Origin: an uncultured Pseudomonadales bacterium
GTDB taxonomy: Bacteria; Patescibacteriota; Microgenomatia; UBA1400; PJMF01
Reading direction: 5' to 3'
NCBI GenBank assembly: GCA_964511345.1
Contig: CAZEEV010000003.1
Coordinates: 1-41,769, forward strand
Length of the DNA stretch: 41,769 nt
Under the pieces are notes generated by a model, which had not been told where the DNA came from, searched no databases, and worked only from the letters and a program-made list of their open reading frames with translations. The translations under genes and the position numbers were made by a program. This document shows positions 19,929 through 41,769 of this stretch, one piece after another. Position 1 is the first letter of the stretch; every line of letters starts with the position of its first letter.

Positions 19929-20006
<78 letters not shown>

Positions 20007-22342: not shown

Positions 22343-22351
22343 AAATTCATC

Positions 22352-25294: not shown

Positions 25295-25304
25295 AATAGA
25301 GTCA

Positions 25305-27326: not shown

Positions 27327-28431
27327 AATTGAAGCCTTACTAATCGAGGCAGAACTAATCAAAGCTCATCAGCCATATTTTAATAGTCTACTCAAAGATG
27401 ATAAATCTAACATTTATCTTCTAATCACTAATGAGAATTTTCCAAGGATTCTGCGTGTTCGCAGAACTGATTTAAATAAAAAAATCTATCAAAACAAATT
27501 GACTCTCTTTGGACCATTTACCAGTGCTTTTAAGTTGGCAGAACTTTTGAAAATTATTCGCCCCATTTTTAAGTGGTGCAACCAAGCCAATGGCACTAAA
27601 CCAAAAACTTGCTTTTATCATCATCTCGACCTATGTTCTGGCGCTTGTTGCCATGAAATAAACGCCTTAGAGTATCGAAAAGATATCGACCAATTAATCT
27701 TATTTCTCAAAGGACGAAAAAAAGATTTGTTGAAAAAGCTGAAAAAAGAGATGACAACATTAGCTGACACGGAAGCTTTTGAAAAAGCTTTAATCATAAA
27801 AAATAAAATTCAATTAATTGAAGAAATTACCAATCACAAATATAAATTAAAAACTGATCTTATTTTGCCAAATTTTTCTCAAGAAGAAAACCAAGAAGCC
27901 TTGGTACATCTCAGGCACATTTTGCATCAAGAAGGCATAGTTGATGTCAAACAGCAATTTCAGCGTATTGAAGGTTATGACGTTAGTAATACTTCTGGAC
28001 AAAACGCTACTGTTTCCATGGTAGTTTTAACCAATGGTGAAATAGACCAGAGTCAATATAAATTTTTCAAAATTCGCTCTCTAAGCACTCCTAATGATTA
28101 CGGCATGTTGCAAGAAGCCTTAACTCGCAGACAAAAGCACTTAGAGTGGGGTAGTCCTGACCTTGTTTTGATTGATGGTGGTAAAGGACAGGTTAGAGCA
28201 GTAGCAAAAGTTTGGAAGAACCAAACTCCACTAATTGGCTTAGTGAAAAATCCAGACAGATTGGTCGTTCTTATTCCAGAAAAAAATCAAGGACATGGTT
28301 TAGAAACAAAAATTATCCCTCTCCAAGCAAATCATCCTACTCTTAAAATGCTACAAAGATTACGTGATGAAGCCCATCGCTTTGCCAAAAAACAACACTC
28401 TCGACTTAGAACCAAAAATCTTTTACAATGA
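27061..28431 (+). CDS. uvrC: excinuclease ABC subunit C, short form lacking the C-terminal (HhH)2 domain
   Basis: GIY-YIG (PGVYSFLDENSQILYVGKAKNLKKRITSY). UVR domain (LKKLKKEMTTLADTEAFEKALIIKNKIQLIEEI). Endonuclease domain (RIEGYDVSN...LIDGGKGQV...RLRDEAHRFA). Ends 13 aa after DEAHRFA. Overlaps the upstream ORF by 266 nt in another frame. Confidence 0.88.
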   Translation: MSSQSTLASNSKLPIRKKPFLWEAVLSSLPSLPGVYSFLDENSQILYVGKAKNLKKRITSYKRSPLLSKKIKKMTELARKVEYQVLESEIEALLIEAELIKAHQPYFNSLLKDDKSNIYLLITNENFPRILRVRRTDLNKKIYQNKLTLFGPFTSAFKLAELLKIIRPIFKWCNQANGTKPKTCFYHHLDLCSGACCHEINALEYRKDIDQLILFLKGRKKDLLKKLKKEMTTLADTEAFEKALIIKNKIQLIEEITNHKYKLKTDLILPNFSQEENQEALVHLRHILHQEGIVDVKQQFQRIEGYDVSNTSGQNATVSMVVLTNGEIDQSQYKFFKIRSLSTPNDYGMLQEALTRRQKHLEWGSPDLVLIDGGKGQVRAVAKVWKNQTPLIGLVKNPDRLVVLIPEKNQGHGLETKIIPLQANHPTLKMLQRLRDEAHRFAKKQHSRLRTKNLLQ

Positions 28432-28435
28432 ACTT

Positions 28436-28798
28436 ATGAAATTCATTAAAGCAGTCATTACTTCTGTTTTAACTATTGCTATTTTAGCCTGGCTTTTCCC
28501 GAATATTAGTTATAACAATTCTGTCACTCTTATCGTAACTGGTCTTGTTTTAACTTTACTTGAAAAAATCATTAGACCAATTCTTAAAATCTTATTTTTA
28601 CCTATCAATGTAGTTACATTAGGTCTATTTTCTCTAGTGATCAATGTCTTTATTCTTTATTTAGCCACCTATTTTGTCCCGGGGTTTGTCATTGAAAACG
28701 TTGTTATTTTTGGCATTCACCTTAACCAGTTCTTTTCACTACTTTTTGCCTCTGCCTTAATCGGCTTTTTCCAGGGAGTTTTTTCTTTAATTTTATAG
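28436..28798 (+). CDS. small 4-TM membrane protein, phage-holin-4_2/DUF360 (YvlD-like) family
   Basis: 120 aa. IIRPILKILFLPINVVTLGLFSLVINVFILYLATYFVPGF is the characteristic core of this family. ATG 28436 lies 4 nt after the uvrC stop. Confidence 0.55.
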   Translation: MKFIKAVITSVLTIAILAWLFPNISYNNSVTLIVTGLVLTLLEKIIRPILKILFLPINVVTLGLFSLVINVFILYLATYFVPGFVIENVVIFGIHLNQFFSLLFASALIGFFQGVFSLIL

Positions 28799-28816
28799 AA
28801 ATCTAAACTCCCAAAA

Positions 28817-28825
28817 TGCTATAAT
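28817..28825 (+). promoter_or_regulatory. consensus extended -10 promoter (TGCTATAAT) 6 nt before ATG 28832
   Basis: Perfect TGnTATAAT. A transcription start 7 nt downstream would coincide with the A of the ATG, giving a leaderless operon mRNA. Confidence 0.55.
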
Positions 28826-28831
28826 AAACAA

Positions 28832-29848
28832 ATGAAAATCACTAAACCTGCCGTTATTGTATTTTTTCTATTTCAATTTTTTACCAGTGCCTTGATCAGC
28901 GGAAATTTGGTACAGGCTCAATTAGCTCCAGCCAAAAGTGCTAGTATTCCTGCCGTTACTGTTACCAATGAAGCCACTATGGCAGCAGAGGCTACAGATA
29001 GCGCCAAACTTTCCTCGCCCTCAGCCGAGGTTGTCGAGAAATTGCAACAAAAAACTGATCAAGATATTACTGAAACCAGTGGTCAAAAGAAAAGTGTCCT
29101 AGCTGCTTATTTAGATGAGCACCCAGTTGGTAAATTGAGCTGGCACAACTTTTTGCAAAAAGCGATTCGCAAATCTATCGCTAGCGGCATGCCTGCTAAC
29201 ATTATTGTGATTCTATTGATTTTTCCAATCATCGCCTCTCTCGTGGCTTTTTCTAGACATGTAGTTGGTTTGAAAGGTTTTGGTATTTATATTCCTGCCG
29301 TTTTGTCAGTCGCTTTTGTTTCCACTGGCATTGTGCCAGGAATAGTGGTGTTTTTGGCAGTTTTATTAACTGCCTTGTTTACTAGACCAATTCTCAAAAA
29401 ATTTAGACTACCTATTTTACCCAGAACAGCCATGTTACTGATGGGCGTCTCTGTAGCCATATTAGCACTGATGTTGATTGGCTCTATTTACAGCATTGAT
29501 TTGGTGATCGATATTAGTATTTTCCCTCTGTTAATTATTATTCTTTTGACTGAAAATTTTATGGAAACACAACTTTTTAATAGTCAAAAAGAAGCTTTAC
29601 AAATCACTTTTGAAACCTTACTGATTGCCGTACTTTGTTCACTTATTATTGGTTCTGAACCAATTCAAAAATTCGTGATTTTACGACCAGAAATGACTCT
29701 CATTGGTGTGGCTTTAATTAATCTCGCCATCGGCAAATATACCGGATTACGTTTTCTAGAATATCTAAGATTTAAAGACTTGTTAGATCCTAAAACTAAA
29801 TTCAAAGAAAGCTCCTCAGAAAATAATTCGCAAGAAGAAGAGGAATAA
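28832..29848 (+). CDS. 7-TM membrane protein of the 7TM_transglut type, with acidic C-terminal tail -SQEEEE
   Basis: Signal-like N-terminus, about 120-aa exposed segment, then about 7 helices. Motifs SRHVVGLKGFGIYIPAVLSVAF and IGKYTGLRFLEYLRF match my memory of the 7TM module usually fused to an inactive transglutaminase. Confidence 0.6.
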   Translation: MKITKPAVIVFFLFQFFTSALISGNLVQAQLAPAKSASIPAVTVTNEATMAAEATDSAKLSSPSAEVVEKLQQKTDQDITETSGQKKSVLAAYLDEHPVGKLSWHNFLQKAIRKSIASGMPANIIVILLIFPIIASLVAFSRHVVGLKGFGIYIPAVLSVAFVSTGIVPGIVVFLAVLLTALFTRPILKKFRLPILPRTAMLLMGVSVAILALMLIGSIYSIDLVIDISIFPLLIIILLTENFMETQLFNSQKEALQITFETLLIAVLCSLIIGSEPIQKFVILRPEMTLIGVALINLAIGKYTGLRFLEYLRFKDLLDPKTKFKESSSENNSQEEEE

Positions 29849-29853
29849 AACTC

Positions 29854-31140
29854 ATGTTTGTGAATAAAGCTAAAGACCTCTTGGGGATTAACGCACGCAA
29901 TTCGCTGTATTTGAGTCGTAGCTCAAATAAAGTAAAAGCTATTGTGCGTTCCAAATATGCCACGAAAATTTTACTAAGAGACAATAATATTGCTACTGCC
30001 GAAATCTATGGCATTCTTGGCACCCATGAAGATATTACTGATTTCAATTGGCAAAATTTAGTTAAAAATTTTGTGATTAAACCAACTAATGGTTATGCTG
30101 GCACTGGTGTTGTAGCTTTCAGAGAAAAAGTTACTGAAGATACCTGGATTGATATGCTCGGCAATAAATGGAATTTGGCTGACATCAAATTACATTGTGA
30201 CGATATTTTATCAGGACAATATAGCATCCACGGACTCAATCACAATGTAATCATTGAAGAAAGAATTCCTATTCATCCTAAATTATTGAAGTATTCATAC
30301 AAAGGCACTCCAGACATCAGAGTGGTAGTTTTTAATAGCGTACCAGTGATGGCCATGCTGCGTTTACCAACTGAAGAGTCGGGTGGTCGCGCCAATGTAA
30401 CTCAAGGAGCTTTGGCTGTCGGTATAGATATTGCTACAGGTATTACCACTCATGCTGTCGCTCACAAAAGTGAACCTATTAATTATCTCCCCGGAACTAA
30501 AAAAAAGTTAAACGGCATCATTATTCCAGAATGGAACTCTATCTTGGAAACTGCAGTTATCGCTAGTAATGCCGCTGAACTTTATTTTGCTGGAGTTGAC
30601 CTTTTTATTCACAAAGACAAAGGACCCATGGTGGTTGAAATTAATGCTGCTCCGGGATTATCTATTCAGGCAGCCAATCGTGCTGGATTACGCAGAAGAT
30701 TGGAAAGAGTAGAAGATTTAAATATTCAAAATCCTAAACACGGAGTAAAAGTAGCTCAGGCACTATTTGCCAGTGATTTTGCCTCTAAAATAAAAAACAA
30801 GGCAGATTTTCCAATTGTCGGTTTATATGAAGAAATTGTTGTTTGGGGAGACAATAAACAAAAAATGGAAACGATTGCTTTTCTTAATACCGGACGCTTT
30901 AGTAGTGCTATTGCCAAAAAGCTAGCTCAGGAGCTAGGTTTAATCGATGTTGATGATTTATTATGGTTTCAATCTGAACAAGAAGAAGGTAAAGTACCAG
31001 TGGTTGAAGTAAAATTCAAGTTGAAAGAAAAAATTGTTAAAACGACCATGATCGTGAGTAACAAGTTAAATAATAAAAAACAAAAAATTGAAATTGGACG
31101 CAAAGATTTAAAGAACTTTGTGATTCGTTTTGATGAATAA
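29854..31140 (+). CDS. RimK-related ATP-grasp ligase (alpha-L-glutamate ligase-like / ATPgrasp_ST) fused to a degenerate retropepsin-like (RimB/Zn_protease-type) C-terminal domain
   Basis: GINARNSLYL, FVIKPTNGYAGTGV, PDIRVVVFNSVPVMAMLRLPTEESGGRANVTQGALAVGIDIATG, VVEINAAPGLSIQAANRAGLRRRLE. The C-terminal 110 aa has IVGLYEEIVV...IAFLNTGRFSSAI...IEIGRKDLKNFVIRFD. Confidence 0.75.
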   Translation: MFVNKAKDLLGINARNSLYLSRSSNKVKAIVRSKYATKILLRDNNIATAEIYGILGTHEDITDFNWQNLVKNFVIKPTNGYAGTGVVAFREKVTEDTWIDMLGNKWNLADIKLHCDDILSGQYSIHGLNHNVIIEERIPIHPKLLKYSYKGTPDIRVVVFNSVPVMAMLRLPTEESGGRANVTQGALAVGIDIATGITTHAVAHKSEPINYLPGTKKKLNGIIIPEWNSILETAVIASNAAELYFAGVDLFIHKDKGPMVVEINAAPGLSIQAANRAGLRRRLERVEDLNIQNPKHGVKVAQALFASDFASKIKNKADFPIVGLYEEIVVWGDNKQKMETIAFLNTGRFSSAIAKKLAQELGLIDVDDLLWFQSEQEEGKVPVVEVKFKLKEKIVKTTMIVSNKLNNKKQKIEIGRKDLKNFVIRFDE

Positions 31141-31150
31141 GAAATAAAAC

Positions 31151-32116
31151 ATGGCCAAACTCAGCGATCTTATCCCAATTAATCTCGATGAAGAAAAAGC
31201 CAAATTTTTTACTGCTAACTTTGACTATAATCCTCAATTTGTTTATCAAAATAATATTTTGAAAACGGACTTGGAAAAATATGGTAAACCAAAATGGTGG
31301 TATCTATTTCTAGCCAAAAGAATTCTCAATCAGTACTTAAAAAATCAAACAACCGCTCAAACTGCAAATAGTACTAACGAGTTTATTGAACAAAATGTCA
31401 TCGAAGAAAAAATCAAACAAAGATTAGACTATTACGACCTAGCAAATCAATACGAAATTATTTTTTCAAAAAATTTTATTAGTCGCATTGCTATTAATAA
31501 CAGCAAAAAAAATATCAAAATACGTCTGCCCATTAAAATAAATTCAAATGAAATTGAGGCTACTCTCAATCATGAAATTGAGACACACATTTTAAGACAG
31601 CTTAACTATGAGCAGCAACCATGGTTTAGAAAGAAGAAAAAATACGGTTTTAAGCCATACCTGCGCACCGAAGAGGGTTTGGCTGTGATCAACGAATTAA
31701 TTGTTAGCGATAATCAACTCGCTTACAAATCCGCCATGAATTATTTAGCAGTTAATCTTGCTTTGAAAAGTGATTTTAAAACTGTCTTTAATTTTTTTCA
31801 CCAAATCAATCATAATCCTGAACGAGCTTGGACTTGGACTCTAAAAAAGAAAAGAGGTTTAACTGATACTAAACAAAAAGGCGCCTTTACCAAGGATTTA
31901 GTCTACTTTGAAGGATTAATCGAAGTTTTAAACTACCTTAAAAAAAATCAATATGATGCCACTAAACTCTATTATGGGAAAATAAGTGTGAATGATATTA
32001 AAAAAGCTGAAAAAATTGGAGTAAACAAACAACTGATTTTACCCAAATTTTTAACTGAAAATACCAAAGAATATATCAGTGCACTCAAAGAATTACGCAG
32101 TTGCAATTTGCTCTAA
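31151..32116 (+). CDS. DUF1704 / QEGLA-motif family metallopeptidase (MATCAP-like, HExxxH)
   Basis: HEIETH (res 141-146), QQPW, LRTEEGLAVINE (res 171-182). This arrangement is characteristic of DUF1704, the family containing the eukaryotic tyrosine carboxypeptidase MATCAP/KIAA0895L. Confidence 0.7.
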   Translation: MAKLSDLIPINLDEEKAKFFTANFDYNPQFVYQNNILKTDLEKYGKPKWWYLFLAKRILNQYLKNQTTAQTANSTNEFIEQNVIEEKIKQRLDYYDLANQYEIIFSKNFISRIAINNSKKNIKIRLPIKINSNEIEATLNHEIETHILRQLNYEQQPWFRKKKKYGFKPYLRTEEGLAVINELIVSDNQLAYKSAMNYLAVNLALKSDFKTVFNFFHQINHNPERAWTWTLKKKRGLTDTKQKGAFTKDLVYFEGLIEVLNYLKKNQYDATKLYYGKISVNDIKKAEKIGVNKQLILPKFLTENTKEYISALKELRSCNLL

Positions 32117-32118
32117 AA

Positions 32119-33399
32119 TTACGGTGCTTCGATTTCTGCGTACACTGCCTGCTCGACCCACTGCACAAGTTGCTCGTACTCATTTCTGTCGTCACAAGCA
32201 ATAATAAATTCCGCCAAAGCATGACCACCATTTTTAGCCTGATAACAAAACTGTTGCGGCTTAGCAAATAATTTGTACATCACTACTTGTGATTGGGTAA
32301 TTAATTCGTTCCATCCATGCAATTTGACTAGACGCCCCGATTTATCTGGATAAATACTATAAGCTGCGACATACTTCTTTAAGATGTTTGGGATAGTTGG
32401 GGAAAGACCAAGATGAATTTTAATGTCATTATAAGAATGATCTATGTCGTAACCATAAAAATACATATTTTGTCTAAAACGACCAATTCTAGGACCAAGT
32501 TCAATAATTTTCCAGCCACTGCTAGTTAAGATCATTTCAATGTGTGCTGTAGAATTGCGCAAGCCCACTGCTTGAATAGCTTTGCTAGCTGCTAGCTGAC
32601 CAGCCTTAATTTGTTCCTCATTTAATTTGGTCGGTAGAAAGCGTTTGTAAAGAAAAAAATCATCAATACCTAACTGTTTGGCTGGAATATAAGCAATAAG
32701 TGGACAAAAATAAGTAGTTCCAATTGAATCTGTGTAAGTATCGATTGAATAAAAATCTCCTTCCAAGTATTCTTCCACAATGACCTGGGGGGATTCTAAG
32801 CGTTCTTCTTGACAATAAATTTCATTAATTTTGGTAAACGTATCTTGTAAAGAGGTCGTCAGCTCATCAATGTCAAAGCAAGATTGAATCAATAAACTAG
32901 AAGCTAACTGAGCTGGTTTAATAATGACCGGAAATTTTAATTTATTGGTAATCGCAGCGATTGAATTGGCAGAAGCATCGCTCACTTCGATAAACTGAGG
33001 AGTAATCTCCGGATAAAGATTGGTGAAGGCCGTACGCATCATTTTTTTATTAGTACTCACTTCCAAAGCATTTGAGTCAGCTATTAATATGTCTTTTGGC
33101 AAGTAAGGAATCACACGACGCAAATACTGTATTTGTTTATCACCTCTGCAAATCACGCCAACTATTTGATCTCTGTATTTAGACAGAGCTCCAATTATTG
33201 CCTCTTGGTTTGAAAAGTCACATATCAATATATCAGCTAATTGTGTTACATACTCTTGATCAATCTGTTTGTTGGACTCGCTAGTAATTAATAAAAGTTC
33301 AGTGTTTGCATAATCAGCATATTCTTTTTTTAATTTATCTAATGCTGGAAAGATGCTATTGGCTAAATGATCAATGATTAATAAGTATTTTTTCGACAT
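32119..33399 (-). CDS. ATP-grasp enzyme, L-amino-acid-ligase / carboxylate-amine ligase-like
   Basis: 426 aa. A pre-ATP-grasp Rossmann-like N-domain, then KFPVIIKPAQLASSLLI, VIVEEYLEGDFYSIDTY, STAHIEMILTSSGWKIIELGPRIGR. Confidence 0.7.
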   Translation of the reverse strand: MSKKYLLIIDHLANSIFPALDKLKKEYADYANTELLLITSESNKQIDQEYVTQLADILICDFSNQEAIIGALSKYRDQIVGVICRGDKQIQYLRRVIPYLPKDILIADSNALEVSTNKKMMRTAFTNLYPEITPQFIEVSDASANSIAAITNKLKFPVIIKPAQLASSLLIQSCFDIDELTTSLQDTFTKINEIYCQEERLESPQVIVEEYLEGDFYSIDTYTDSIGTTYFCPLIAYIPAKQLGIDDFFLYKRFLPTKLNEEQIKAGQLAASKAIQAVGLRNSTAHIEMILTSSGWKIIELGPRIGRFRQNMYFYGYDIDHSYNDIKIHLGLSPTIPNILKKYVAAYSIYPDKSGRLVKLHGWNELITQSQVVMYKLFAKPQQFCYQAKNGGHALAEFIIACDDRNEYEQLVQWVEQAVYAEIEAP

Positions 33400-33434: not shown

Positions 33435-35468
33435 CTAAGTTTTCTTAATTTGTAAGCTAATTTCCTCAATTTTTTTACTTAAATTAAAATTTTGCTTAGT
33501 AATAATTAAGCCTTCTTTTTCCATGGCAAAATTTTTAGCAAAACCAGTAACTGCAATCTGTTTAAAATTATGTTTTATTGGTAATGTTTTAGAAAAATCA
33601 AAACTCGCCACTAAGGATATGGCATTTTTTTGCACTAGATCAAAAATTGAGACAATTAAATTATCAGTAAATTTTTGCTCAACACCCTGATTGGCAATCA
33701 AAATTAAACTCTTTTGTTGTTGAAAAACATTAATTAATTTTGTCAATAGTATTAACACATAAAAAACCAAAGACAATAAGTTACAAGTGCCTCCATAGCG
33801 CAAGACAAAAATTAAAGTAAATAGAAGCATTAAAACTAAAAACCACCAAGGATACTCAAGTAAATATAAAACGAAAATACGCATGCGTTCAATAAACGGT
33901 AATTTTTCTTGACCAGCTGCTTGCAAGGTAGGAATTAGAATTCCCTGACCATGGTAATTTTCTTGATTAAACTCCTGACCTTGATAAAAATGCCAAAAAT
34001 CTAGCTGATTTGGTTTTTGATCGCCAATTGGATAATAAAAATTACTGTCCTTTACTCTGAAAAACCACTCATTTGGAAAATTAAAATCATTGAAGTTGCC
34101 TCGTAAATTGGTAATTGTAAAATCCAAAACCTGCTGATTCCTATCTAGCAGCTCTACTTTAACAAGAGAGCTGGCAATAGTTTTTCCATACTCAAATACT
34201 AAATTTTTCGTTGCTTTAAAAATATTTGGAAATAAAATTAGAGATAATTTTTTCAACAAAGAAAAAGAGAAATCTCTCATAAATTTAGTTAATAATAAGA
34301 AGAAAGCAAACAAGTAAAAAGATAACACAAATAAAAGACCTACTAGGGGAGCTAAATTTAGCCAAAATTCTGATCCTAGAAATGCTCTGATCTGGTCTGC
34401 GGTTGATTTTGGCAGCACCTCAGTGATTTCATCACTAATTTCATGAATAATTTCTTTGGGAGGAACAATTGGAATAATACCTGTTGGTGTAGGGCTAACA
34501 CTTATACTTGGTTTAACGGTTACTGTAGCGCTTAAGGTGGGAGAAATTGGTTGAGTGGGAGTTGGTGAAGTACTAATAGTTGGAGTAGGCGTTGGAGTAG
34601 GTGATGATGTCAAGGTAGCGGTCGGTGTTGGCGTAGTGGTAGGCCAATATTGAAGCTCAATACGAAAATATACTTTTTCTAGAACACTGATGTGTCCAAC
34701 TTTATCAGTAATAATAAAATCAAGCTTAATATCTGTGTTTCTAGGTAAAATCCCCAATTTCAATTCATAGTAACCGTCAGTATCAATTGTTTTGTGAAAA
34801 ACTTGCGTCGCATCACCAGGAATGCTTACTGTTAATTTAACTTCACTACCCACTTCTCCATAGGCAATAAGGGTGGGTTCATTAGCGGTAGCATCATCTT
34901 TGAAAATAATCACCGGACTACTAGGCACTGATCCAGTATTTCCAGCAGAAATATTAACTGCTGTATCACCAATTTTAGTCAATCTAAAACTAGGTGCCAA
35001 AGTATCAATGGTGAAATCCCACACATCTGAAAAAGAACTTAAACCAGCGTAATCAAAAGCAATAATATTCCAAGTATATGATCTATCACTTAAAGCATTC
35101 TTAGGAGTTAAGGTGTAGATACCATTGATAGAATCGTAGATTAAAGTGTAATAACTATTTTCAGTACCAACTAGAGGAATGTTGTTGTAAACAATACTGC
35201 CATTCAAGTAAAAAACATAATGAGACATACCAACATTATCAATTGATTCATACCAGCTAAATGAGGGGGTATTGTCACTCAATAAAGCTCCATCACTAGG
35301 TTCAATTAAAATTGGTGATGAAGGAGCTTGCGAATCTGGTATTCTAGCAGAGATTGTAATATCGGCAGCTGACACTGGAGTTAAATTAGCAAACAACAAG
35401 ACCACCAAGAGGAATAGGCTAAAGAATAATAATTTTACTTTATTTCTGCAAATCATCAGGCTTTTCAT
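33435..35468 (-). CDS. large surface/membrane protein: signal peptide, two Ig/FN3-like beta domains, Pro/Thr linker, polytopic C-terminal half with an embedded beta domain
   Basis: 677 aa. LLFFSLFLLVVLLFANLTPVSA signal. PILIEPSDGALLSDNTPSFSWYES...YTWNIIAFDYAGLSS has an Ig-like pattern. Linker TTTPTPTATLTSSPTPTPTPTISTSPTPTQPISPT. Several TM helices flank VKVELLDRNQQVLDFTITNLRGNF. The 5' end overlaps the upstream gene by 29 nt. Confidence 0.65.
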   Translation of the reverse strand: MKSLMICRNKVKLLFFSLFLLVVLLFANLTPVSAADITISARIPDSQAPSSPILIEPSDGALLSDNTPSFSWYESIDNVGMSHYVFYLNGSIVYNNIPLVGTENSYYTLIYDSINGIYTLTPKNALSDRSYTWNIIAFDYAGLSSFSDVWDFTIDTLAPSFRLTKIGDTAVNISAGNTGSVPSSPVIIFKDDATANEPTLIAYGEVGSEVKLTVSIPGDATQVFHKTIDTDGYYELKLGILPRNTDIKLDFIITDKVGHISVLEKVYFRIELQYWPTTTPTPTATLTSSPTPTPTPTISTSPTPTQPISPTLSATVTVKPSISVSPTPTGIIPIVPPKEIIHEISDEITEVLPKSTADQIRAFLGSEFWLNLAPLVGLLFVLSFYLFAFFLLLTKFMRDFSFSLLKKLSLILFPNIFKATKNLVFEYGKTIASSLVKVELLDRNQQVLDFTITNLRGNFNDFNFPNEWFFRVKDSNFYYPIGDQKPNQLDFWHFYQGQEFNQENYHGQGILIPTLQAAGQEKLPFIERMRIFVLYLLEYPWWFLVLMLLFTLIFVLRYGGTCNLLSLVFYVLILLTKLINVFQQQKSLILIANQGVEQKFTDNLIVSIFDLVQKNAISLVASFDFSKTLPIKHNFKQIAVTGFAKNFAMEKEGLIITKQNFNLSKKIEEISLQIKKT
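34480..34648 (-). repeat. low-complexity Pro/Thr/Ser-rich linker-coding region
   Basis: Translates to WPTTTPTPTATLTSSPTPTPTPTISTSPTPTQPISPTLSATVTVKPSISVSPTPTG. Confidence 0.8.
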
Positions 35469-36432
35469 CTCCGCTTTCTAAATCTTTAGAAATCGCATTA
35501 TTTAGAGTAGAAGCCTTGCGTTTTTTAAGTGAGACAAACAAAATAGTAATTATTAAGACAATAATTAGAACTAATAGAATGATTTTGACTGGAATTAAAT
35601 ATAATCCAGCAACCGCCGTCATCATTCTACCTTGACTACCATAGCTTGCTTCAACTATTGCTTTATAATAACCAAAGCCCCAAACCTTGTTCCATGAACC
35701 AACAAATTCGCGCTCACTTTTAGGAAAAATATTTTTTGCTTCTATCTCAAGATTAGCCACTTCCTTACCAAACAAGTTATAAATTTTCAGTACCGGTTTT
35801 GTATTAATATGAATATCTGATTGGTTATCAATCTTTAAAGAAAAATTAATTGGACCATTTTCCAAAAATTTTGGCCAATTAAAACGGCTGATATAGGCCT
35901 CTTCATTAATTTCTCCTTCAACTACTACATATAACAAAGTACCCACTCGTTGCGATATGCCAGATCCAGATTCCGTTACCGGGGTAGCACTTAAAGGTCG
36001 ATGATAAATCATTGCGTAGTGACCTCCTGGTAGAGCGTCTTTCGGCACCTCAATCAACACATTGACTACTGCTACTTCTTCGCTATTCAATTTATGTTCA
36101 GCTGGTACTAAAGTTAACCAAGAGACTAGGCTCCATCTGGAATCAGCTTGTTTAGTATCAATTAAGACAGGAGTAAAGCCATCTTCAGCAACAATAAAAT
36201 CAGTCGCCTTACTTTCCAAAGCCACCGCCTCTTCAGAACCATTACGTACTTTGATTTGAACTTGTTTTTTCTCACCTGGCTTGAGACGAATACTAAAATC
36301 ATCGCCAAGTCTTACTGGCGTAGCTGTTAAAGACAAATTGGAAACAGCAAAAACTTGAGTAGTTAAAAATAAAAAAAGAAATAAGCTAAAAAAAGCAGAA
36401 ATTATTTTGATATTCGGGCAGATTTTTAACAT
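35440..36432 (-). CDS. DUF916/DUF3324-like two-beta-domain cell-surface protein with C-terminal TM anchor (paralog A2)
   Basis: Signal FFSLFLFLFLTTQVFA. LSLTATPVRLGDDFSIRLKPGEKKQVQIKVRNGSEEAV. Second domain INFSLKIDNQSDIHINTKPVLKIYNLFGKEV. C-terminal helix KIILLVLIIVLIITILFVSLKKRK. Confidence 0.55.
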   Translation of the reverse strand: MLKICPNIKIISAFFSLFLFLFLTTQVFAVSNLSLTATPVRLGDDFSIRLKPGEKKQVQIKVRNGSEEAVALESKATDFIVAEDGFTPVLIDTKQADSRWSLVSWLTLVPAEHKLNSEEVAVVNVLIEVPKDALPGGHYAMIYHRPLSATPVTESGSGISQRVGTLLYVVVEGEINEEAYISRFNWPKFLENGPINFSLKIDNQSDIHINTKPVLKIYNLFGKEVANLEIEAKNIFPKSEREFVGSWNKVWGFGYYKAIVEASYGSQGRMMTAVAGLYLIPVKIILLVLIIVLIITILFVSLKKRKASTLNNAISKDLESGDEKPDDLQK

Positions 36433-36442
36433 ATTTTAAACC

Positions 36443-37888
36443 CTAAAAGGTGGCTGAAGCCGTATATACTAGATAATTCTCATAACTTCCAGCAGCGTTG
36501 GTAGCAGCTGGTGCAATGCGGTAACACACATCAACAATATCGCTGGCAGTAACAGTGGAACGCTCAAAAATAGTTTGCACTGCTTCACCTGCTGCCAAAT
36601 CAGCAAACTGTCTGGCATAGAAAGTGCCACTCTCATTGTAATAAAATGCTGGCGTAAAGGTTGCCCCAGTCGCATCTGGATCTAGAGTATAACCAAACCC
36701 CGGATAAGTTGTTGCATTTGTCCAATCTGCAGAAGCTGTGTGACTAGCACCAGTAACACTGGCGTCAACTATGCAAGTAATACTTCCTGAACCATCTGTC
36801 GCACAGGCATTAGCTTCACGTCCAACCTGATCATTTTCTGCCGCAGTTACAGTGTAGCCACCGATAGCGTTAGTGGTCACCGTCAATCTCTGAGCAGCAT
36901 TAGTAAAAGTGCCAACAATCAAATCACCAAATGGAACAGTTAGCGCAGTAGTTGATACGTCAGTACTAATTCCACAAACACTAGTAGAAGCAGGCAAGCC
37001 AGCGATGGTAAAAGTAATCTGTGGAGCAATATAAGCAGAAACTTTGACTGCATCTACTACACCAATTTTAGTAACAGTTTGATCAATTACCACATCAGAA
37101 CTATCTAAATGTTGAATAATGACGGTATAGGTATCTGCTTGGCCCAAGGTGTGATTATTAGTGCCTGTCTTTGGCGCTGGATTAATCAAGTTAGAAATTA
37201 CAAACGGATCTGCATCGGTGCCATCGAAGTCCGTACCAACTTCTCCCAAGCCACTATAACTACAAACAAAAGAATGATAGGGAACAGTATCAATCACTAT
37301 AGTTGAAGTATCTGCAGGAGTACTAGTGGCTGTAAAAGTACCATAGGCAGTTATAGTAGGGCAAGTAATCGAGGCTGGAGTAGCAGATCCAAAGTCAAAA
37401 CCACCTGTGTCTGGAATATCATTGTGATCACTACCATCGTCAGCCACGGCTGGTACTAAAATGCGAAAAGAACCAGCATTTAAAGCACTAATGGTTTTTA
37501 AGCGCACGGTCAGAGAAGAAGTTTGCGAAGAATAAACAGTAGCATCGTCAGTAATATCACTAACATCTAAGCCAGCAGTGAGATTGAAGGTGTTGTCGTT
37601 TGTGTCATCAATGGTTGTAGCTACCGTATAAACACTATCATTAATTGTGACATCATCACGATTTTGTAACTGTAAAACCGATTCAGATGGATAGTTAGTA
37701 GTATCAATCGTTACCAAAGAAGAACCAGTAGTTTGTGCACCTTCTAGTGCACTTAAAAAAGACAGCCTAGCATTATTAAGCGTAGCTGATGTGTTTTCAA
37801 ATTCGCCAGAAAAAACAACGTATTTCTTAGCAAAAATAAAAACCAAAAATAATAAGGGGAATACAAACAAATATTTTTTCAACTTCAT
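36443..37888 (-). CDS. secreted Thr/Ala/Asp-rich surface (fibre/adhesin-like) protein with C-terminal WxL-like domain (large paralog)
   Basis: 481 aa with N-terminal signal/anchor. C-terminal domain: VPFGDLIVGTFTNAAQRLTVTTNAIGGYTVTAAEN...WTNATTYPGFGY...YARQFADLAAGEAVQ...AAGSYENYLVYTASATF-COOH. Paralogous to 38975-39784. Confidence 0.55.
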   Translation of the reverse strand: MKLKKYLFVFPLLFLVFIFAKKYVVFSGEFENTSATLNNARLSFLSALEGAQTTGSSLVTIDTTNYPSESVLQLQNRDDVTINDSVYTVATTIDDTNDNTFNLTAGLDVSDITDDATVYSSQTSSLTVRLKTISALNAGSFRILVPAVADDGSDHNDIPDTGGFDFGSATPASITCPTITAYGTFTATSTPADTSTIVIDTVPYHSFVCSYSGLGEVGTDFDGTDADPFVISNLINPAPKTGTNNHTLGQADTYTVIIQHLDSSDVVIDQTVTKIGVVDAVKVSAYIAPQITFTIAGLPASTSVCGISTDVSTTALTVPFGDLIVGTFTNAAQRLTVTTNAIGGYTVTAAENDQVGREANACATDGSGSITCIVDASVTGASHTASADWTNATTYPGFGYTLDPDATGATFTPAFYYNESGTFYARQFADLAAGEAVQTIFERSTVTASDIVDVCYRIAPAATNAAGSYENYLVYTASATF

Positions 37889-37930
37889 AATCTTGATTTA
37901 AGAATAACTTACTTTAACTCCTCTAGTCAA

Positions 37931-38971
37931 CTAGGGCTTTTTGTTGGCAGATTTTTGAAAAATTTTTTTTAATAAAGTAAAGAACCAATAAAAAAATGGC
38001 AATAGTATAGCAATCAACAAGATAGAAAATGGTAAAACGATAATTCTTTTTTGTAAAAAATCATCGCCGACTTTAAGCTCCAAATCATAGGCACCAACCA
38101 AAAAACCTTTTTTGTACAAGAATTTATCACGAAGGTTTTCATTAACAAACTTATTTTTTTTAGCTTCGTAATCTTCACCATTGGCAATAGTAATTGCTTT
38201 GGCTTCTTCCATTTGCTCCAAAATCTTTAAATCTGCTTCTGCCATAGCTCGTACCAATCTTTTACTGTCAGCTAAAACCATATCTGGATAAAGCTCATAA
38301 GTTTCCACATTCTGATTGGGCCAATGACTAATTTTGATGTGCCCCTCAACAGGAGTAGCATTCACACCAATATTTTTGACTAAAGCCGAAAAACTAAAAC
38401 CCATAAAACTGTCGGCGATTTTTGGTAAAAAGAACTGTTCAATACTCAACTCGCCACGATTTTGATCATCGGCGCTCACCAACAAAACCACATTGCTTGC
38501 CACCACCGCTGAAACTAGAGTGTTTTCATTAGAAACACTACTATAAGATAATTGCTTAGCTTGAAACAAAATTGACAGGTAATGTTCCTGATATTTCGCT
38601 TCAGAGTGGAGAGCAATTACAAAATTCAGAGGCTTTTCTTCTCCTGGTTTTAGTAAAAAACTTTTACCCCATTTATTGGGATCGCCATCAAGATTTAAGT
38701 AATCAAAATCACTTTTCTGTTCCAAAATTACCGCACCAGTTTTATCATCACTGTGAAAATTTACCAACACTGGAGTAATTTCTAAAGTATAAAGACCACT
38801 ATTGTTAATTTTGATTTGATGATTAATACCAGCTCCTGGTTTAACAGACAAATACGCCACTGGTGGATAAACTTTTAGATCCAAAGCTGATGCAGCCAAA
38901 ACCTCTCGTTTGCAACTAACCAGTGAAAGAAAAAATAAAAAACAAACTAAAAATTTTTTCATATTATTCAA
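37931..38971 (-). CDS. DUF916/DUF3324-like two-beta-domain cell-surface protein with C-terminal TM anchor (paralog A1)
   Basis: Signal FLVCFLFFLSLVSC. LDLKVYPPVAYLSVKPGAGINHQIKINNSGLYTLEI. C-terminal helix ILLIAILLPFFYWFFTLLKKIF. Confidence 0.55.
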   Translation of the reverse strand: MNNMKKFLVCFLFFLSLVSCKREVLAASALDLKVYPPVAYLSVKPGAGINHQIKINNSGLYTLEITPVLVNFHSDDKTGAVILEQKSDFDYLNLDGDPNKWGKSFLLKPGEEKPLNFVIALHSEAKYQEHYLSILFQAKQLSYSSVSNENTLVSAVVASNVVLLVSADDQNRGELSIEQFFLPKIADSFMGFSFSALVKNIGVNATPVEGHIKISHWPNQNVETYELYPDMVLADSKRLVRAMAEADLKILEQMEEAKAITIANGEDYEAKKNKFVNENLRDKFLYKKGFLVGAYDLELKVGDDFLQKRIIVLPFSILLIAILLPFFYWFFTLLKKIFQKSANKKP

Positions 38972-38974
38972 AAA

Positions 38975-39784
38975 CTAATACCCTGGCACTGCTACAAATA
39001 CTATGCTTGTTTGATAATTACCTGCAGCTTGATCACCAGACATAGCAGCTTTATAAGTTACGGTTGCAGAATTATTTAAAGCAACATTGTCCGAACCCAT
39101 AATTAATTGCATGCTTTCTCCTGCTTCATTATTGGCAAACTGGCGAAAATAATTACTATTAATAAAATCATTGGCCACGTCATCATCACCAATGTTAAAA
39201 CTATATCCAGGAGTACTCGAGTCTGACAACACATTAGCAGTAACATTAAAACCAAAACCAGGATTGTTTGGATCAGTCCAAACCCCCGCCACACTCTCAT
39301 CGCAACTAACATCACAATTAGTATCATTAATATCAGTCGTTGAACCCGGTGAATCAACGCTAATATGTCTGAGTGGATGATTCTCAAAAACATAAACACT
39401 GTAACCACTGGCTCCATTAGTGGTTACGCTAATATCATGAGAATCGGTTTTGAAGCTACCAGGAAATAATTCACCCAATTCAATACTTAATTTAGAAATA
39501 CTAAAGAAAAAATAATCAATCTGATAAACATACTGAAAACCACTGCCGATAAAATAATTGTCACTACCATATTGACCATAAGGTCCAGAAGCTAAACCGC
39601 CCATAGTATCAGAAAGAATATAGGTATCTCCATCTCTCCTGCCAGAACCCATATTAAAATTCCCAAACTGAATTTTGTAAGAATCGGATTTCATTTCCTC
39701 TGCAAAAACTTGTCTAGAAAAAAAACTGCATAACCCTGCAAAAAGAAAAAGTAACACAATTGTGAAAAAAATTCTAATTTTCAT
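38975..39784 (-). CDS. secreted surface subunit with WxL-like C-terminal domain (small paralog)
   Basis: 269 aa. Signal IFFTIVLLFLFAGLCSFFSRQVFA. N-terminal triple motif SDSYKI / GDTYIL / SDNYFI. Then LGELFPGSFKTDSHDISVTTNGASGYSVYVFEN...WTDPNNPGFGF...YFRQFANNEAGESMQ...AAGNYQTSIVFVAVPGY-COOH. Confidence 0.55.
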   Translation of the reverse strand: MKIRIFFTIVLLFLFAGLCSFFSRQVFAEEMKSDSYKIQFGNFNMGSGRRDGDTYILSDTMGGLASGPYGQYGSDNYFIGSGFQYVYQIDYFFFSISKLSIELGELFPGSFKTDSHDISVTTNGASGYSVYVFENHPLRHISVDSPGSTTDINDTNCDVSCDESVAGVWTDPNNPGFGFNVTANVLSDSSTPGYSFNIGDDDVANDFINSNYFRQFANNEAGESMQLIMGSDNVALNNSATVTYKAAMSGDQAAGNYQTSIVFVAVPGY

Positions 39785-40592
39785 CTTCTTTTGGAACCAA
39801 TGTGACTGATGCTTCCTGTTCTACTTCTTTAATAAGCACTTCCATCTTTTGATTTTCTTCTTCTTCTAAGGATTTTTCCTTAGAGGAAACTTGAGTAGTT
39901 TTTTTGTCAATTTGACGCAATAAAACACCCAGGTCTTTTTTGAGCACTTGTACTTCAGCATTAATGGCCAGCTTATTTTTTTCAGGAAAACTGAGCAAAA
40001 ACTCCAACATGGGCAAACGTCTATTAATTAAAGATGCCACAAAATCAGCCACAGCTTGATCATCACGTTTAGCCCGATTTAATTCTCGATTCTGTGCATC
40101 CACCAGGAGGTGATTACTATAAGCTTTCTCGTACTGACTTTTGGCAAAAAGATAAAAAACAGTCACAATTGGTAAAGCAATTAAATTAGAGAGTTCAGCC
40201 ATGGATAATACAAAATTATTACTACTGGCAATACTCAGACTAAAATGAAAAACCATAATTTCCAAAGCTAACAATAAAGAGGTTTTGGTGGGCGCAGCTA
40301 AAGCGATAAAAAAAAGCTCAACGAAAGTAATAGCAAAAAAAGGTGAAGCTAATGAGCCACTAGTTCCTGTTAACAACAAAAAAGCAAAGTTAATTAAAGC
40401 TAAATTAGCTGATGAACTGTCTGGTAAAATTAAATAAAAACGCCCTTTTTGTCTTTTTTGTAAAATCAAATATAAAGCGCTACAAAGGGCAAAAACCTGC
40501 AGAGAGTAGTGTTTTAAAAAGGGCACTTGCAGATACAAATAAGCCGCTAAAACACTCATGGTCAATAGAATGGCGTGCTTAATACTACTCAT
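39774..40592 (-). CDS. polytopic membrane protein (about 5-6 TM) with cytoplasmic coiled-coil, acidic tail; first gene of the surface operon
   Basis: 272 aa. Hydrophobic N-terminal 165 aa, then a helical segment LLVDAQNRELNRAKRDDQAVADFVASLINRRLPMLEFLL...EEEENQKMEVLIKEVEQE. There is an 11-nt overlap with the next gene. Confidence 0.5.
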   Translation of the reverse strand: MSSIKHAILLTMSVLAAYLYLQVPFLKHYSLQVFALCSALYLILQKRQKGRFYLILPDSSSANLALINFAFLLLTGTSGSLASPFFAITFVELFFIALAAPTKTSLLLALEIMVFHFSLSIASSNNFVLSMAELSNLIALPIVTVFYLFAKSQYEKAYSNHLLVDAQNRELNRAKRDDQAVADFVASLINRRLPMLEFLLSFPEKNKLAINAEVQVLKKDLGVLLRQIDKKTTQVSSKEKSLEEEENQKMEVLIKEVEQEASVTLVPKEDEN

Positions 40593-40599
40593 ACTAAAA

Positions 40600-40605
40600 A
40601 GTATA
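40600..40605 (-). promoter_or_regulatory. -10 box (TATACT) 7 nt before ATG 40592
   Basis: The reverse complement of 40593-40605 reads TATACT-TTTTAGT, then ATG. A possible -35, TAGTCA, lies 17 nt upstream. Confidence 0.35.
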
Positions 40606-40628
40606 GATGAAATCTCTTAGATTGACTA

Positions 40629-40657
40629 TTGTCTTTTAAGAGGCTTGCCCTTAAAAT
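40629..40657 (+). promoter_or_regulatory. candidate rRNA operon promoter
   Basis: TTGTCT, then N17, then TAAAAT, about 260 nt upstream of the 16S 5' end. Weak evidence only. Confidence 0.25.
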
Positions 40658-40872
40658 AACTCCCACTTCACAATTTTGTTCTTATGGAATAAAATTCTTC
40701 AGCGTCTAGAGGAAGTACGAGAAACAAGAAAGTTTTTCTTTCTTTTTTTTGTCTGCTAGAGCAAATTGATCTTTAACAAGTAAACAGCCAATTGGAAATA
40801 AATATAGTGATAGAAAGTGTGCAAGGATTTTTCCTTTTTAGGAAAAGTCCGTCAATTTTTTAGTAAATTTGG

Positions 40873-40897
40873 CTTTTAGTGATGATTTCACTAAAAG
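40873..40897 (+). other. perfect 10-bp inverted repeat in the 16S leader (probable processing-stem or leader structure)
   Basis: CTTTTAGTGA-tgatt-TCACTAAAAG followed by TTTTTT, about 20 nt upstream of the mature 16S 5' end. Confidence 0.4.
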
Positions 40898-40918
40898 TTT
40901 TTTAGAGCTAAATCAAAC

Positions 40919-41769
<851 letters not shown>

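Follow-up and report, generated by a model that had tools for sequence, protein, structure and literature searches.

The locus examined here raises the question of what six adjacent genes for secreted and membrane proteins build at the surface of a CPR bacterium. An earlier note on this DNA had read them as a highly divergent counterpart of the WxL/Csc clusters of Firmicutes, in which a small and a large WxL protein are encoded together with a WxLIP composed of a DUF916 domain, a DUF3324 domain, and a TM helix (PMC10599100; PMC9772566). All positions refer to the window, the whole stretch of 41,769 nt that was analysed (contig CAZEEV010000003.1), and the genes are numbered g1 to g6 in their order on the minus strand.

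Layout and conservation of the six-gene operon

In the ORF listing of the window, all six ORFs lie on the minus strand at 33435-40592, with computed junctions from g1 to g6 of -11, +3, +42, +10, and -29 nt, and hydropathy analysis recovered a signal peptide or TM segments in 6/6 products; coordinates, strand, junctions, and membrane or export signals were all as originally described. The 326-bp intergenic region that separates g1 on the minus strand from a 16S rRNA gene on the plus strand (40593..40918; the rRNA gene begins at 40919) presumably holds the operon promoter. Minus-strand promoter-like sites were located there (40628-40600 and 40855-40827), and the number of such sites in this region was not above that in shuffled sequence.

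To assess gene order among relatives, HMMs of the six families were applied to 80 species-level genomes, which carry the names Pacebacteria, Woesebacteria, or Microgenomates. The order 1-2-3-4-5-6 was found on a single strand in 59 of the 80 loci; in the remaining 21, either the locus ran into a contig end or stopped no more than a few hundred bases short of one, or a gene was represented by two neighbouring ORFs, a pattern we read as splitting rather than duplication. The order is thus effectively invariant across these genomes, while the neighbouring genes vary (five loci examined). Because the order was kept in so many loci, the exceptions were contig ends or split ORFs, and the flanks differ, the arrangement is far beyond chance. 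Retention of the order in Patescibacteria, which the earlier note had left to be verified, together with the secreted and membrane-bound nature of the products, bears out its proposal of a conserved surface-structure operon in a CPR bacterium.

Subunits, membrane-anchored partners, and polytopic proteins

Two products, g2 (269 aa; 38975..39784, minus strand) and g4 (481 aa; 36443..37888, minus strand), have a sole hydrophobic segment, which is N-terminal and signal-like by hydropathy. The former was classed as a secreted, small, PamT-like subunit from NCBIfam matches below cut-off, and the latter as a secreted, two-domain, PamA-like subunit from its AF2 model and the homology of its C-terminal domain (CTD) to that of g2. 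In g2, a Gly-rich and strongly conserved N-terminal region (~29-95) precedes a Pam-pilin CTD (~97-269) with an invariant Cys157/Cys161 pair; the protein matched NF058581 (Pam_pilin_C) at E=2e-7 and, over its full length, NF058579 (PamT) at E=3.8e-5, in both cases below the cut-off. Within the g2 family, 43 of 46 members matched Pam_pilin_C and 20 of 46 matched PamT; the corresponding counts for diverse small-subunit representatives were 66/87 and 49/87 (best E=7e-16), and NF058581 was also matched by 27 of the 61 g4 relatives. All scores against the Pam HMMs fall well short of the curated NCBI cut-offs (31 vs 55 bits, and at most ~60 vs 240 bits).

The AF2 model of g4 (pLDDT 93.7) consists of a large all-beta N-terminal domain (NTD; ~31-278) and a CTD (~300-481), joined by a conserved linker strand (~279-297; AVxVSAxIAPQITFTIxG). 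Conservation peaks at the N-terminal strand, this linker, and the C-terminal strand; Cys176, 209, 305, 362, 372, and 455 are each at least 98% conserved, and the composition is rich in Thr (15%), Ala (11.4%), and Asp (8.1%), as noted before. The full-length model retrieved only weak, generic Ig-like PDB matches with Foldseek; its CTD is homologous to that of g2 (BLASTP 1e-17; hhalign 99.7%), and the two subunits have a C-terminal Pam-pilin domain in common, in agreement with the original claim of a common domain. By these features, g2 is a candidate tip or initiator and g4 a candidate shaft pilin.

The proteins g3 (346 aa, TTG start; 37931..38971, minus strand) and g5 (330 aa; 35440..36432, minus strand) each combine a signal peptide, two beta domains, and a C-terminal TM helix; in g5 these are a DUF916-like domain (35-171), a second beta domain (179-279), and a helix at 282-320. 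Hydropathy profiles placed an N-terminal signal in both and a strong C-terminal TM segment at 310-328 in g3 and 284-302 in g5, and the g3 orthologues aligned with the g5 family over 263 columns (hhalign 98.8%, E=4e-17), confirming the described architecture and identifying the two as paralogous, divergent two-Ig-domain proteins. Their DUF916-like character also held: g5 matched Pfam PF06030 (E=4e-5), as did 45 of 54 g5 relatives, one relative is labelled "DUF916 domain-containing protein" by NCBI, and both aligned with Firmicute WxLIP (g5, hhalign 96.7%, E=4e-10; g3, which is less conserved than g5, 87%, E=4e-6). Pfam DUF3324 matched the second domain in 0/54 relatives. For the AF2 model of g5 (pLDDT 82), the best Foldseek matches were crystal structures of Enterococcus faecium WxLIP (9i1y/9i25, E=1e-13), followed by the chaperone-usher chaperones CfaA, CsuC, DraB, Caf1M, and YadV (E=1e-10 to 1e-7, TMt 0.44-0.57). 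Thus, g3 and g5 are homologues of WxLIP/DUF916 proteins and resemble chaperone-usher chaperones in structure.

In the g5 model, a low-confidence loop (~147-162) is followed by a conserved strand, ISQRVGTLLYVV, and the two together are a candidate donor hairpin. Insertion of a WxLIP strand into WxL has been predicted independently (PMC10599100), and the PDB holds a WxLIP-long-WxL complex (9i25). Because g3 and g5 are dedicated, strictly conserved, and interleaved with the subunits, a chaperone function can be argued, with g3 a candidate membrane-anchored chaperone of the adjacent small subunit g2 and g5 a candidate WxLIP/PapD-like membrane-anchored chaperone.

The last gene, g6 (677 aa; 33435..35468, minus strand), encodes a protein that begins with a signal peptide and a conserved strand at the mature N terminus (ADITISARIP...PILIEP), continues with two Ig-like (Big_13) domains and a Pro/Thr linker (~276-335), and further carries a TM segment at ~364-393, two more at 543-582, and a C-terminal tail, consistent with its first description as an Ig-like, PT-linked, polytopic protein. 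A beta-sandwich at ~420-490 is CarboxypepD_reg/SdrD_B-like; Big_13 was matched in 25/25 and CarboxypepD_reg in 17/25 orthologues, and PDB sequence matches were to SdrD and a SiiE-like Ig protein. The N-terminal strand and Ig domains account for most of the conservation, and the membrane half is poorly conserved; by analogy to PamR, g6 may be a terminator and membrane anchor. The conserved first gene of related loci, g1 (272 aa; 39774..40592, minus strand), is a polytopic membrane protein by ORF and hydropathy, with about five TM segments in residues 1-150 and then a charged, probably coiled tail. It matched no Pfam or NCBIfam family, and its only invariant residues (P24, L26, Q32, S83, and P141) are none of them of catalytic type; it may serve as a membrane platform or regulator.

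A probable Pam-type pilus and competing explanations

Our preferred explanation, which we consider probable (about 0.78), is a Pam-type pilus that a Microgenomatia-like CPR bacterium assembles by donor-strand exchange without an usher, the operon being a streamlined version with six genes. PamA and PamB filaments of Ca. Mycosynbacter amalyticus were solved by cryo-EM, and TM-anchored PapD-like chaperones, donor-strand assembly, and the lack of an usher were proposed in the same preprint, which also reports homologues in Microgenomatia, including in its supplement (Fig. S7) (10.64898/2026.03.03.709456, bioRxiv 2026). The remark in the earlier note that no description of such a system in CPR was known to its author is therefore outdated, and its suggestion that the DUF916-like proteins act as chaperone-like assembly factors agrees with the published Pam model. 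The cassette is best read as coding for a tip-like subunit, a shaft pilin with two chaperones beside it, a candidate anchor, and one further polytopic protein; the product is most likely a thin surface filament, with a likely function in contact with a host cell or surface.

We infer donor-strand complementation, the order of subunits, and chaperone-subunit pairing as follows. Sec would carry the subunits across the membrane, where the membrane-tethered chaperones at the outer face, g3 probably with g2 and g5 probably with g4, would cap the incomplete Ig-like CTD with an inserted hairpin strand, which in g5 would be the flexible loop and strand described above. The fibre would begin at the distal tip with the PamT-like g2, and g4 subunits would join at the base, each displacing the chaperone as its conserved strand, which in the PamA/B structures is the NTD-CTD linker, fills the groove of the subunit added before it. 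Disulfides of three conserved Cys pairs in g4 and one in g2 may stiffen the fibre. Growth would stop when the mature N-terminal strand of g6 is inserted into the last g4, and the TM segments of g6 would keep the fibre in the membrane.

A non-filamentous complex of the WxL/Csc type, with divergent WxL subunits held non-covalently at the wall and stabilised one-to-one by WxLIP-like proteins without polymerisation, would account for the profile and structural homology of g3 and g5 and for a composition that mirrors the WxL cluster. In the best hhalign alignment of the diverse small-subunit profile with a WxL profile, the two are even co-linear over the entire domain, pairing GYxV with the first GWxL/V motif and G-Y-xxx-I-x-[YF]-x-A with the second, G-Y-xxx-L-x-W-x-L. 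However, this alignment fell short of significance (probability 1.9-2.8%, P about 0.02, against P about 0.008-0.35 in other negative controls), no subunit alignment with WxL exceeded 2.8%, Pfam WxL was matched by 0/61 g4 relatives and not by g2, a WxL HMM built for this analysis had no match in the window, pilin profiles gave negative bits on SwpA and LwpA, and the long-WxL chain of 9i25 was outside the top 50 Foldseek matches of g4. The subunits instead match models of Pam pilins, whose filaments are known from cryo-EM. [quoted passage not shown]

Self-assembly of the subunits into a chaperone-independent fibre like TasA, archaeal bundling pili, or tafi, with g3 and g5 only as membrane anchors or adhesins, is very unlikely. 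Tafi and related haloarchaeal pili do assemble through strand donation (PMC12337348), TasA (8aur_A) was among the g4 Foldseek matches (probability 0.96, TMt 0.33), and NCBIfam TafC matched a small-subunit superfamily representative (E=8e-6), but the TasA match is weak (rank 26), that to TafC involves 1/87 representatives, a SipW-like signal peptidase or camelysin (M73) signature was present in 0/6 products, and two dedicated, strictly conserved PapD/WxLIP-like proteins are interleaved with the subunits. More improbable still is that secreted Ig-like adhesins and membrane proteins without any relation to one another are merely co-transcribed and build no common structure: an invariant order in about 80 species despite varying flanks, the paralogous pairs g2/g4 and g3/g5, and specific Pam-family HMM matches all argue against it, even though Ig-like folds are generic, the Foldseek matches of g4 to integrins and MSCRAMM adhesins are about as good as those to pilins, and no function can be assigned to g1 or to the membrane half of g6.

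Comparison with known systems

With the Firmicute WxL/Csc clusters, the cassette shares TM-anchored two-Ig-domain proteins homologous to WxLIP, a small subunit and an N-terminally extended large subunit with a common CTD, and a partner predicted to complete the subunit beta-sandwich with a hairpin strand. It differs in its subunits without a detectable WxL domain, in a second domain unmatched by DUF3324, in having two WxLIP-like genes rather than one, and in the lack of an LPXTG protein or sortase; moreover, descriptions of WxL proteins are of peptidoglycan-bound monomers rather than filaments. Periplasmic chaperones of Gram-negative chaperone-usher pili (Pap/Fim, CFA/I, Csu, and Caf1) align with the g5 model, and the mechanism inferred here is theirs as well: donor-strand complementation, then exchange, with the fibre growing tip first from its base. 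The present system differs in lacking an outer membrane and an usher, in tethering its chaperones to the membrane, and in a pilin with a large additional NTD; the donated strand in Pam is an inter-domain linker, and sequence similarity is absent. TasA, archaeal bundling pili, and haloarchaeal tafi are likewise strand-donation polymers of extracellular beta-sandwich subunits in hosts without an outer membrane, with marginal similarity (the weak TasA and single TafC matches); those systems, however, lack PapD/WxLIP-like chaperones and are exported by SipW or Tat.

The closest known system is the Pam pilus, to which the cassette is likened through NCBIfam models and the preprint description. Neither the Foldseek matches nor the PDB sequence searches contained the PamA/B coordinates (25PZ/25QA), which are therefore presumed missing from the PDB copies searched. 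Both systems appear CPR-restricted, Sec-dependent, and usher-free, and the architecture matches the preprint. The pilin has two domains, a conserved linker strand, an Ig-like CTD that is truncated, and paired cysteines; the PamT-like subunit, g2, has a single domain; the two chaperones, g3 and g5, have two domains and a C-terminal TM helix each; and g6 is a membrane-anchored Ig/FnIII-type protein with an extra N-terminal strand. The M. amalyticus set comprises PamA/B/E pilins, PamT, PamC/D chaperones, and PamR (10.64898/2026.03.03.709456), i.e., three two-domain pilins vs one here; PamR is RbmA-like with a single TM segment, whereas g6 is a larger, polytopic Big_13 and CarboxypepD_reg protein with a Pro/Thr linker; the strictly conserved polytopic g1 is extra, without a described Pam counterpart; and no ATP-synthase, CorB, or MFS genes occurred among the flanking genes annotated, which comprise ten ORFs at 17303-33399 and those called in three related loci. 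Because the Pam_pilin_C and PamT matches, significant yet sub-threshold, score far under the equivalog cut-offs, the cassette represents a sister clade to the M. amalyticus Pam, probably in Microgenomatia rather than Saccharimonadia, and its modest novelty is that Pam-type chaperones are members of the WxLIP/DUF916 family.

Organization and Spread of the Cassette

The cassette consists of six minus-strand genes, called g1 to g6 in order of transcription: g1 (39774-40592, 272 aa), g2 (38975-39784, 269 aa), g3 (37931-38971, 346 aa, TTG start), g4 (36443-37888, 481 aa), g5 (35440-36432, 330 aa), and g6 (33435-35468, 677 aa). All coordinates match the ORF listing, as the earlier note had them, and the junctions computed from them are, in order, -11, +3, +42, +10, and -29 nt. 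By hydropathy, the g1 product has ∼5 TM segments, g2 and g4 have an N-terminal signal-like segment and nothing more, g3 and g5 have a signal and a single strong C-terminal TM segment (310-328 in g3), and g6 has a signal and TM segments at ∼364-393 and 543-582. Promoter and terminator scans gave site counts equal to those of shuffles, and a family HMM search of the rest of the window found no further pilin or chaperone paralogues. Divergent from g1 on the plus strand are the 5′ 850 nt of a 16S rRNA gene (40919-41769), truncated at the edge of the window; the ORF calls at 41046-41753 are spurious, being translated from this rRNA.

Searches with the six proteins (tblastn) recovered all six genes in order in loci with g4 identities of 79, 72, 54, and 43%, and g2-g5 in one locus at 32% identity; the flanks of related loci vary, with ArgRS/ComEC/LeuRS, Lon/ClpB, or rRNA. 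A genome scan with the g2 alignment yielded 80 species-level loci, 59 of which keep the order 1-2-3-4-5-6 by HMM assignment, bearing out the conservation in relatives on which the earlier note had made its reading depend. Each of the other 21 loci either reaches a contig end (or stops a few hundred bases short of one) or carries one gene as two adjacent ORFs, which we read as split genes; apparent tandem duplications in four loci (e.g., the pattern 1234556) are likewise most likely split ORFs, each extra copy being a short adjacent fragment. A 426-aa ATP-grasp/LAL-type ligase gene (32119-33399, minus strand), 35 nt downstream of g6, was considered as a seventh member, but it has no counterpart beside the cassette in related loci, and the unit is therefore delimited as six genes. 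The cassette is a real, strongly conserved operon.

Informative titles among the 80 loci, specifically Pacebacteria, Woesebacteria, Microgenomates, and Microgenomatus, suggest that the carriers belong to the class Microgenomatia; many other titles are placeholders. Some cassette-bearing records are titled TM6, Limisphaerales, Methylococcaceae, Vitreimonas sp. (a 1.41-Mb contig), or, in many cases, Pseudomonadales; these are probably placeholder or wrong labels, or mis-binned contigs. The window also represents a superfamily of no fewer than 1,368 clusters at 50% identity.

Chaperone-Like Proteins and Secreted Subunits

The TM-anchored pair, g3 and g5, had been proposed to be DUF916-like, and this held up. 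The g5 product matches Pfam PF06030 (DUF916 = WxLIP_PGBD) with E=4e-5, just under the gathering score, and the same model matches 45 of 54 g5 relatives (best E=2e-8), one relative being labeled by NCBI as ‘DUF916 domain-containing protein’; the Pfam DUF3324 model matched none of the 54. Against profiles of WxLIP proteins from Firmicute WxL loci (Enterococcus, Bacillus, Listeria, Niallia, Lactococcus, Melissococcus, and Companilactobacillus), the g5 family scored 96.7% in hhalign (E=4e-10, 206 columns) and g3 scored 87%; g3 and the g5 family matched each other at 98.8% (E=4e-17, 263 columns), with reversed controls at ≤3% throughout. In the AF2 model of g5 (pLDDT 82), two beta domains precede a TM helix at 282-320. 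The best PDB matches of the model in Foldseek were the Enterococcus faecium WxLIP crystal structures 9i1y and 9i25, aligned over both domains (E=1e-13, TMt 0.55-0.57), followed by RbmA and then by the chaperone-usher chaperones CfaA, CsuC, DraB, Caf1M, and YadV (E=2e-10 to 1e-7, TMt 0.44-0.57). Because of these Pfam, hhalign, and AF2/Foldseek results, g3 and g5 are assigned to the WxLIP/DUF916 family with a predicted PapD-like fold. A low-confidence loop in the g5 model (147-162) is followed by a conserved strand, ISQRVGTLLYVV, that aligns with the WxLIP strand region. The Pam pilus system of Ca. Mycosynbacter amalyticus includes two PapD/FimC-like chaperones with C-terminal TM helices, PamC and PamD, and no usher (10.64898/2026.03.03.709456); g5 and its paralogue g3 share this two-domain, C-terminally anchored architecture.

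The two secreted subunits are related to each other, residues 95-265 of g2 and 312-477 of g4 being 28% identical (E=1e-17) and the C-terminal domains matching at 99.7% at profile level. The g2 product matches NCBIfam NF058581, ‘Pam pilus system pilin subunit’ (31.2 bits, E=2e-7; curated cut-off of 55 bits not reached), and, over its full length (10-269 vs. 6-241 of 241), NF058579, ‘CPR-type pilus protein PamT’ (23 bits, E=3.8e-5; cut-off of 240 bits not reached). Within the g2 family, NF058581 matched 43 and NF058579 matched 20 of 46 sequences; among 87 divergent g2-type representatives from an exhaustive search, the counts were 66 and 49 (best E=7e-16), respectively; across both sets, the best E for NF058581 was 2e-10. 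NF058581 did not match g4 itself and matched 27 of 61 members of its family (best E=1.4e-7). All of these matches lie well under the curated cut-offs, and no listed E-value approaches 55 bits; at the sequence level, the homology of g2 and g4 to the Pam pilin C-terminal domain is significant, membership by the NCBI threshold fails, and g2 is best described as PamT-like, not as a PamT equivalog.

The AF2 model of g4 (pLDDT 93.7) is all-beta, with an N-terminal domain at ∼31-278, a strand at 291-297, and a C-terminal domain at ∼329-479. Three elements stand out as conservation peaks: an N-terminal strand, the linker that joins the two domains (AVxVSAxIAPQITFTIxG), and the C-terminal strand. Each of the six g4 cysteines, like the Cys157/161 pair in g2, is retained in ≥98% of sequences. 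Pam pilins are two-domain proteins with paired cysteines, in which the linker strand completes the truncated Ig-like C-terminal domain of a neighbor (10.64898/2026.03.03.709456). Sequence searches with g4, g2, and two family profiles, in copies of the PDB that presumably lack the PamA/PamB structures (25PZ/25QA), returned nothing relevant, and a phage tail-fiber origin of g4 was rejected at BFVD Foldseek TM-scores of ≤0.2 on long alignments. One representative of the small-subunit superfamily matches NCBIfam NF052521, ‘TafC family fimbrial protein’ (E=8e-6); TafC is a haloarchaeal Tat-fimbriae subunit, and relatives of Tat-fimbriae assemble by strand donation (PMC12337348). The match may point to a deeper relationship of the Pam C-terminal domain with TasA/ABP/tafi-type pilins.

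The earlier note had taken the subunits for WxL proteins with YxV in place of WxL, and a non-filamentous complex of the WxL type was accordingly considered; the WxLIP-like pair is what such a complex would share with the cassette. Pfam WxL matched neither g2 and g4 nor the g4 relatives, a WxL HMM built from 21 Firmicute sequences found nothing in the window at E≤0.1, and SwpA and LwpA drew negative bit scores from the pilin HMMs. Among the top 50 Foldseek matches of g4, which include even p53 core domains, the long-WxL chain of 9i25 was absent, and hhalign comparisons of pilin and WxL profiles (three profiles and a high-diversity one, with reversed controls) reached 0.5-2.8%. With a diverse subunit profile (Neff 5.6), the top WxL alignment is co-linear over the whole domain at P ∼0.03, a level surpassed by unrelated controls, which reach P ∼0.008; in it, FG, GYxV, and G-Y-xxx-I-x-[YF]-x-A fall on the WxL motifs FG, GWxL/V, and G-Y-xxx-L-x-W-x-L, pairing residues as the earlier note had. 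We lean against homology of the subunits to the WxL domain. Two other explanations were weighed, namely a chaperone-free fiber of the TasA/tafi type, to which the TafC match would be congenial and in which the PapD-like pair would not act as chaperones, and unrelated adhesins, which sit poorly with the recurrent matches of both subunit families to the Pam pilin model. In our reading, the cassette belongs to the Pam pilus type described recently, as a divergent new member.

Membrane Components, Proposed Assembly, and Neighboring Genes

Big_13 Ig-like domains were found in all 25 g6 orthologues and a CarboxypepD_reg/SdrD_B-type sandwich in 17 of the 25; conservation covers the Ig domains and the N-terminal strand of the mature protein, not the membrane half. 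PamR is RbmA-like, with two FnIII domains, a C-terminal TM helix, and an extra N-terminal strand (10.64898/2026.03.03.709456), and g6, a candidate counterpart, has a conserved strand at its mature N terminus, a pair of Ig-like domains, and TM segments, but its architecture differs in being polytopic and in having a CarboxypepD_reg domain. Residues 352-357 of g6 (window 34396-34413) read LPKSTA, a few residues before the first hydrophobic segment and with basic residues after it; the resemblance to a sorting signal is loose, and a sortase site is improbable, as LP alone is conserved at ≥50% among orthologues. For g1, neither a family nor invariant catalytic-type residues were found.

By analogy with Pam and chaperone-usher models, which guide every step after export, the following route is proposed. 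Subunits of the g2/g4 type would be exported through Sec and captured at the membrane by the tethered chaperones g3 and g5, with loop 147-162 and the strand ISQRVGTLLYVV as the candidate donor element of g5. Growth would be tip-first, with g2 initiating and g4 added repeatedly by donor-strand exchange; disulfides may stabilize the fiber, and g6 may terminate and anchor it via its N-terminal strand and TM segments.

Downstream of the cassette, genes for Transglut_core (25305-27326), 7TM_transglut (28832-29848), ATPgrasp_ST (29854-31140), and MATCAP-like carboxypeptidase (31151-32116) proteins form, with the ATP-grasp/LAL-type ligase next to g6, a cluster (25305-33399) that looks like a peptide-ligase/modification system; the 7TM_transglut/ATPgrasp_ST/MATCAP trio also adjoins the cassette in the related locus L007. 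Clustered here are also uvrB (20228-22342), uvrA (22352-25294), and, amid the transglutaminase/ATP-grasp genes, uvrC (27061-28431), whose listed ORF shares 266 nt with the transglutaminase-like gene that separates it from uvrA. The stretch 19932-20108 contains two tRNA genes, and a PMT_2/PMT-family protein O-mannosyltransferase-like membrane glycosyltransferase is encoded at 18548-19897 on the minus strand. Extra density at PamA Ser356 is consistent with glycosylation (10.64898/2026.03.03.709456); g4 is very Thr/Ser-rich (Thr/Ala/Asp, 15/11/8%), and glycosylation of this pilin is conceivable. In another related locus (L006, 15800-21476), a giant gene, whose 5,296-aa product carries a Peptidase_S74 chaperone domain of the tail-spike type, is found ∼1.5 kb past the downstream end of the cassette, with one opposite-strand gene between them; it recalls the ‘tail fibre-like protein’ reported as a conserved Pam neighbor (10.64898/2026.03.03.709456).

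Comparison With Known Systems

CPR bacteria (Patescibacteria) are ultrasmall, and their mode of attachment is a central open question; to our knowledge, all cultivated members grow attached to other microbes, and Pam pili, from one cultured species of Saccharimonadia, are so far the sole CPR-specific filament with a solved structure. The cassette adds a compact, strictly conserved six-gene version in ∼80 Microgenomatia-like species, with a minimal parts list: a single tip-like subunit and a single shaft pilin, a pair of chaperones, a candidate anchor, and the g1 membrane protein. It also adds the homology of Pam-type chaperones to the Firmicute WxLIP/DUF916 family, which ties the cassette to a widespread surface-protein system of Gram-positive bacteria whose mechanism is unclear, suggests that strand insertion follows one chemistry in both, and would allow better annotation of CPR proteins that NCBI labels ‘DUF916 domain-containing’.

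Chaperone-usher systems share with the cassette the PapD-like chaperone fold, as seen in the g5 Foldseek matches; no Pfam or NCBIfam usher match was found in the six products, and the membrane parts of g1 and g6 are hydrophobic helical TM segments by hydropathy, not a beta-barrel. WxL/Csc clusters share the WxLIP component, found in g5 by PF06030, hhalign, and Foldseek over both domains; their definition requires at least two adjacent WxL-domain proteins (PMC10599100), which were not detected in the cassette. Hassan et al. predicted that a WxLIP hairpin becomes a strand completing the WxL beta-sandwich (PMC10599100), and the WxLIP-long-WxL complex 9i25 was deposited in the PDB in 2026. We found no paper linking WxL with donor-strand assembly, and the Pam preprint makes no mention of WxL, DUF916, or DUF3324 (10.64898/2026.03.03.709456). 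A tentative idea, which we think rather unlikely as it stands, is that Pam pili and Firmicute WxL/Csc clusters go back to a single ancient donor-strand system, chaperone-assisted and usher-free, in single-membrane bacteria, and share the TM-anchored WxLIP/DUF916 protein as a tethered chaperone and as the demonstrably homologous part, with the Pam C-terminal domain (GYxV … Y/FxA) and the WxL domain (GWxL … WxL) as divergent homologues. If so, WxL proteins may be chaperone-delivered and perhaps oligomerizing, not simple peptidoglycan binders, and PamC/D should be annotated as WxLIP-family.

The closest known system is the Pam pilus. Two Ca. Mycosynbacter amalyticus filaments, made of PamA and PamB, have been solved, and the operon also encodes PamE and the single-domain PamT; homologues occur in no bacteria but CPR, for the most part in Saccharimonadia and Microgenomatia, the latter recovered by a language-model search that included a Roizmanbacteria PamA homologue at ∼21% identity (10.64898/2026.03.03.709456). 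Named homologues of the cassette are likewise restricted to CPR (Patescibacteria, Pacebacteria, Woesebacteria, Microgenomates, or Paceibacterota), apart from a few records titled Pseudomonadales, Vitreimonas, or TM6, which we take to be mislabeled. Of the earlier interpretation, the DUF916-like chaperone or anchor proteins stand and a surface fiber is probable; the WxL subunits are not supported, and the view that such a system was undescribed in CPR is given up, since the Pam pilus has already been described (10.64898/2026.03.03.709456). Compared by description and HMM, the cassette fits the published system part by part in reduced form, differing from the type system in g1 and in the polytopic g6.
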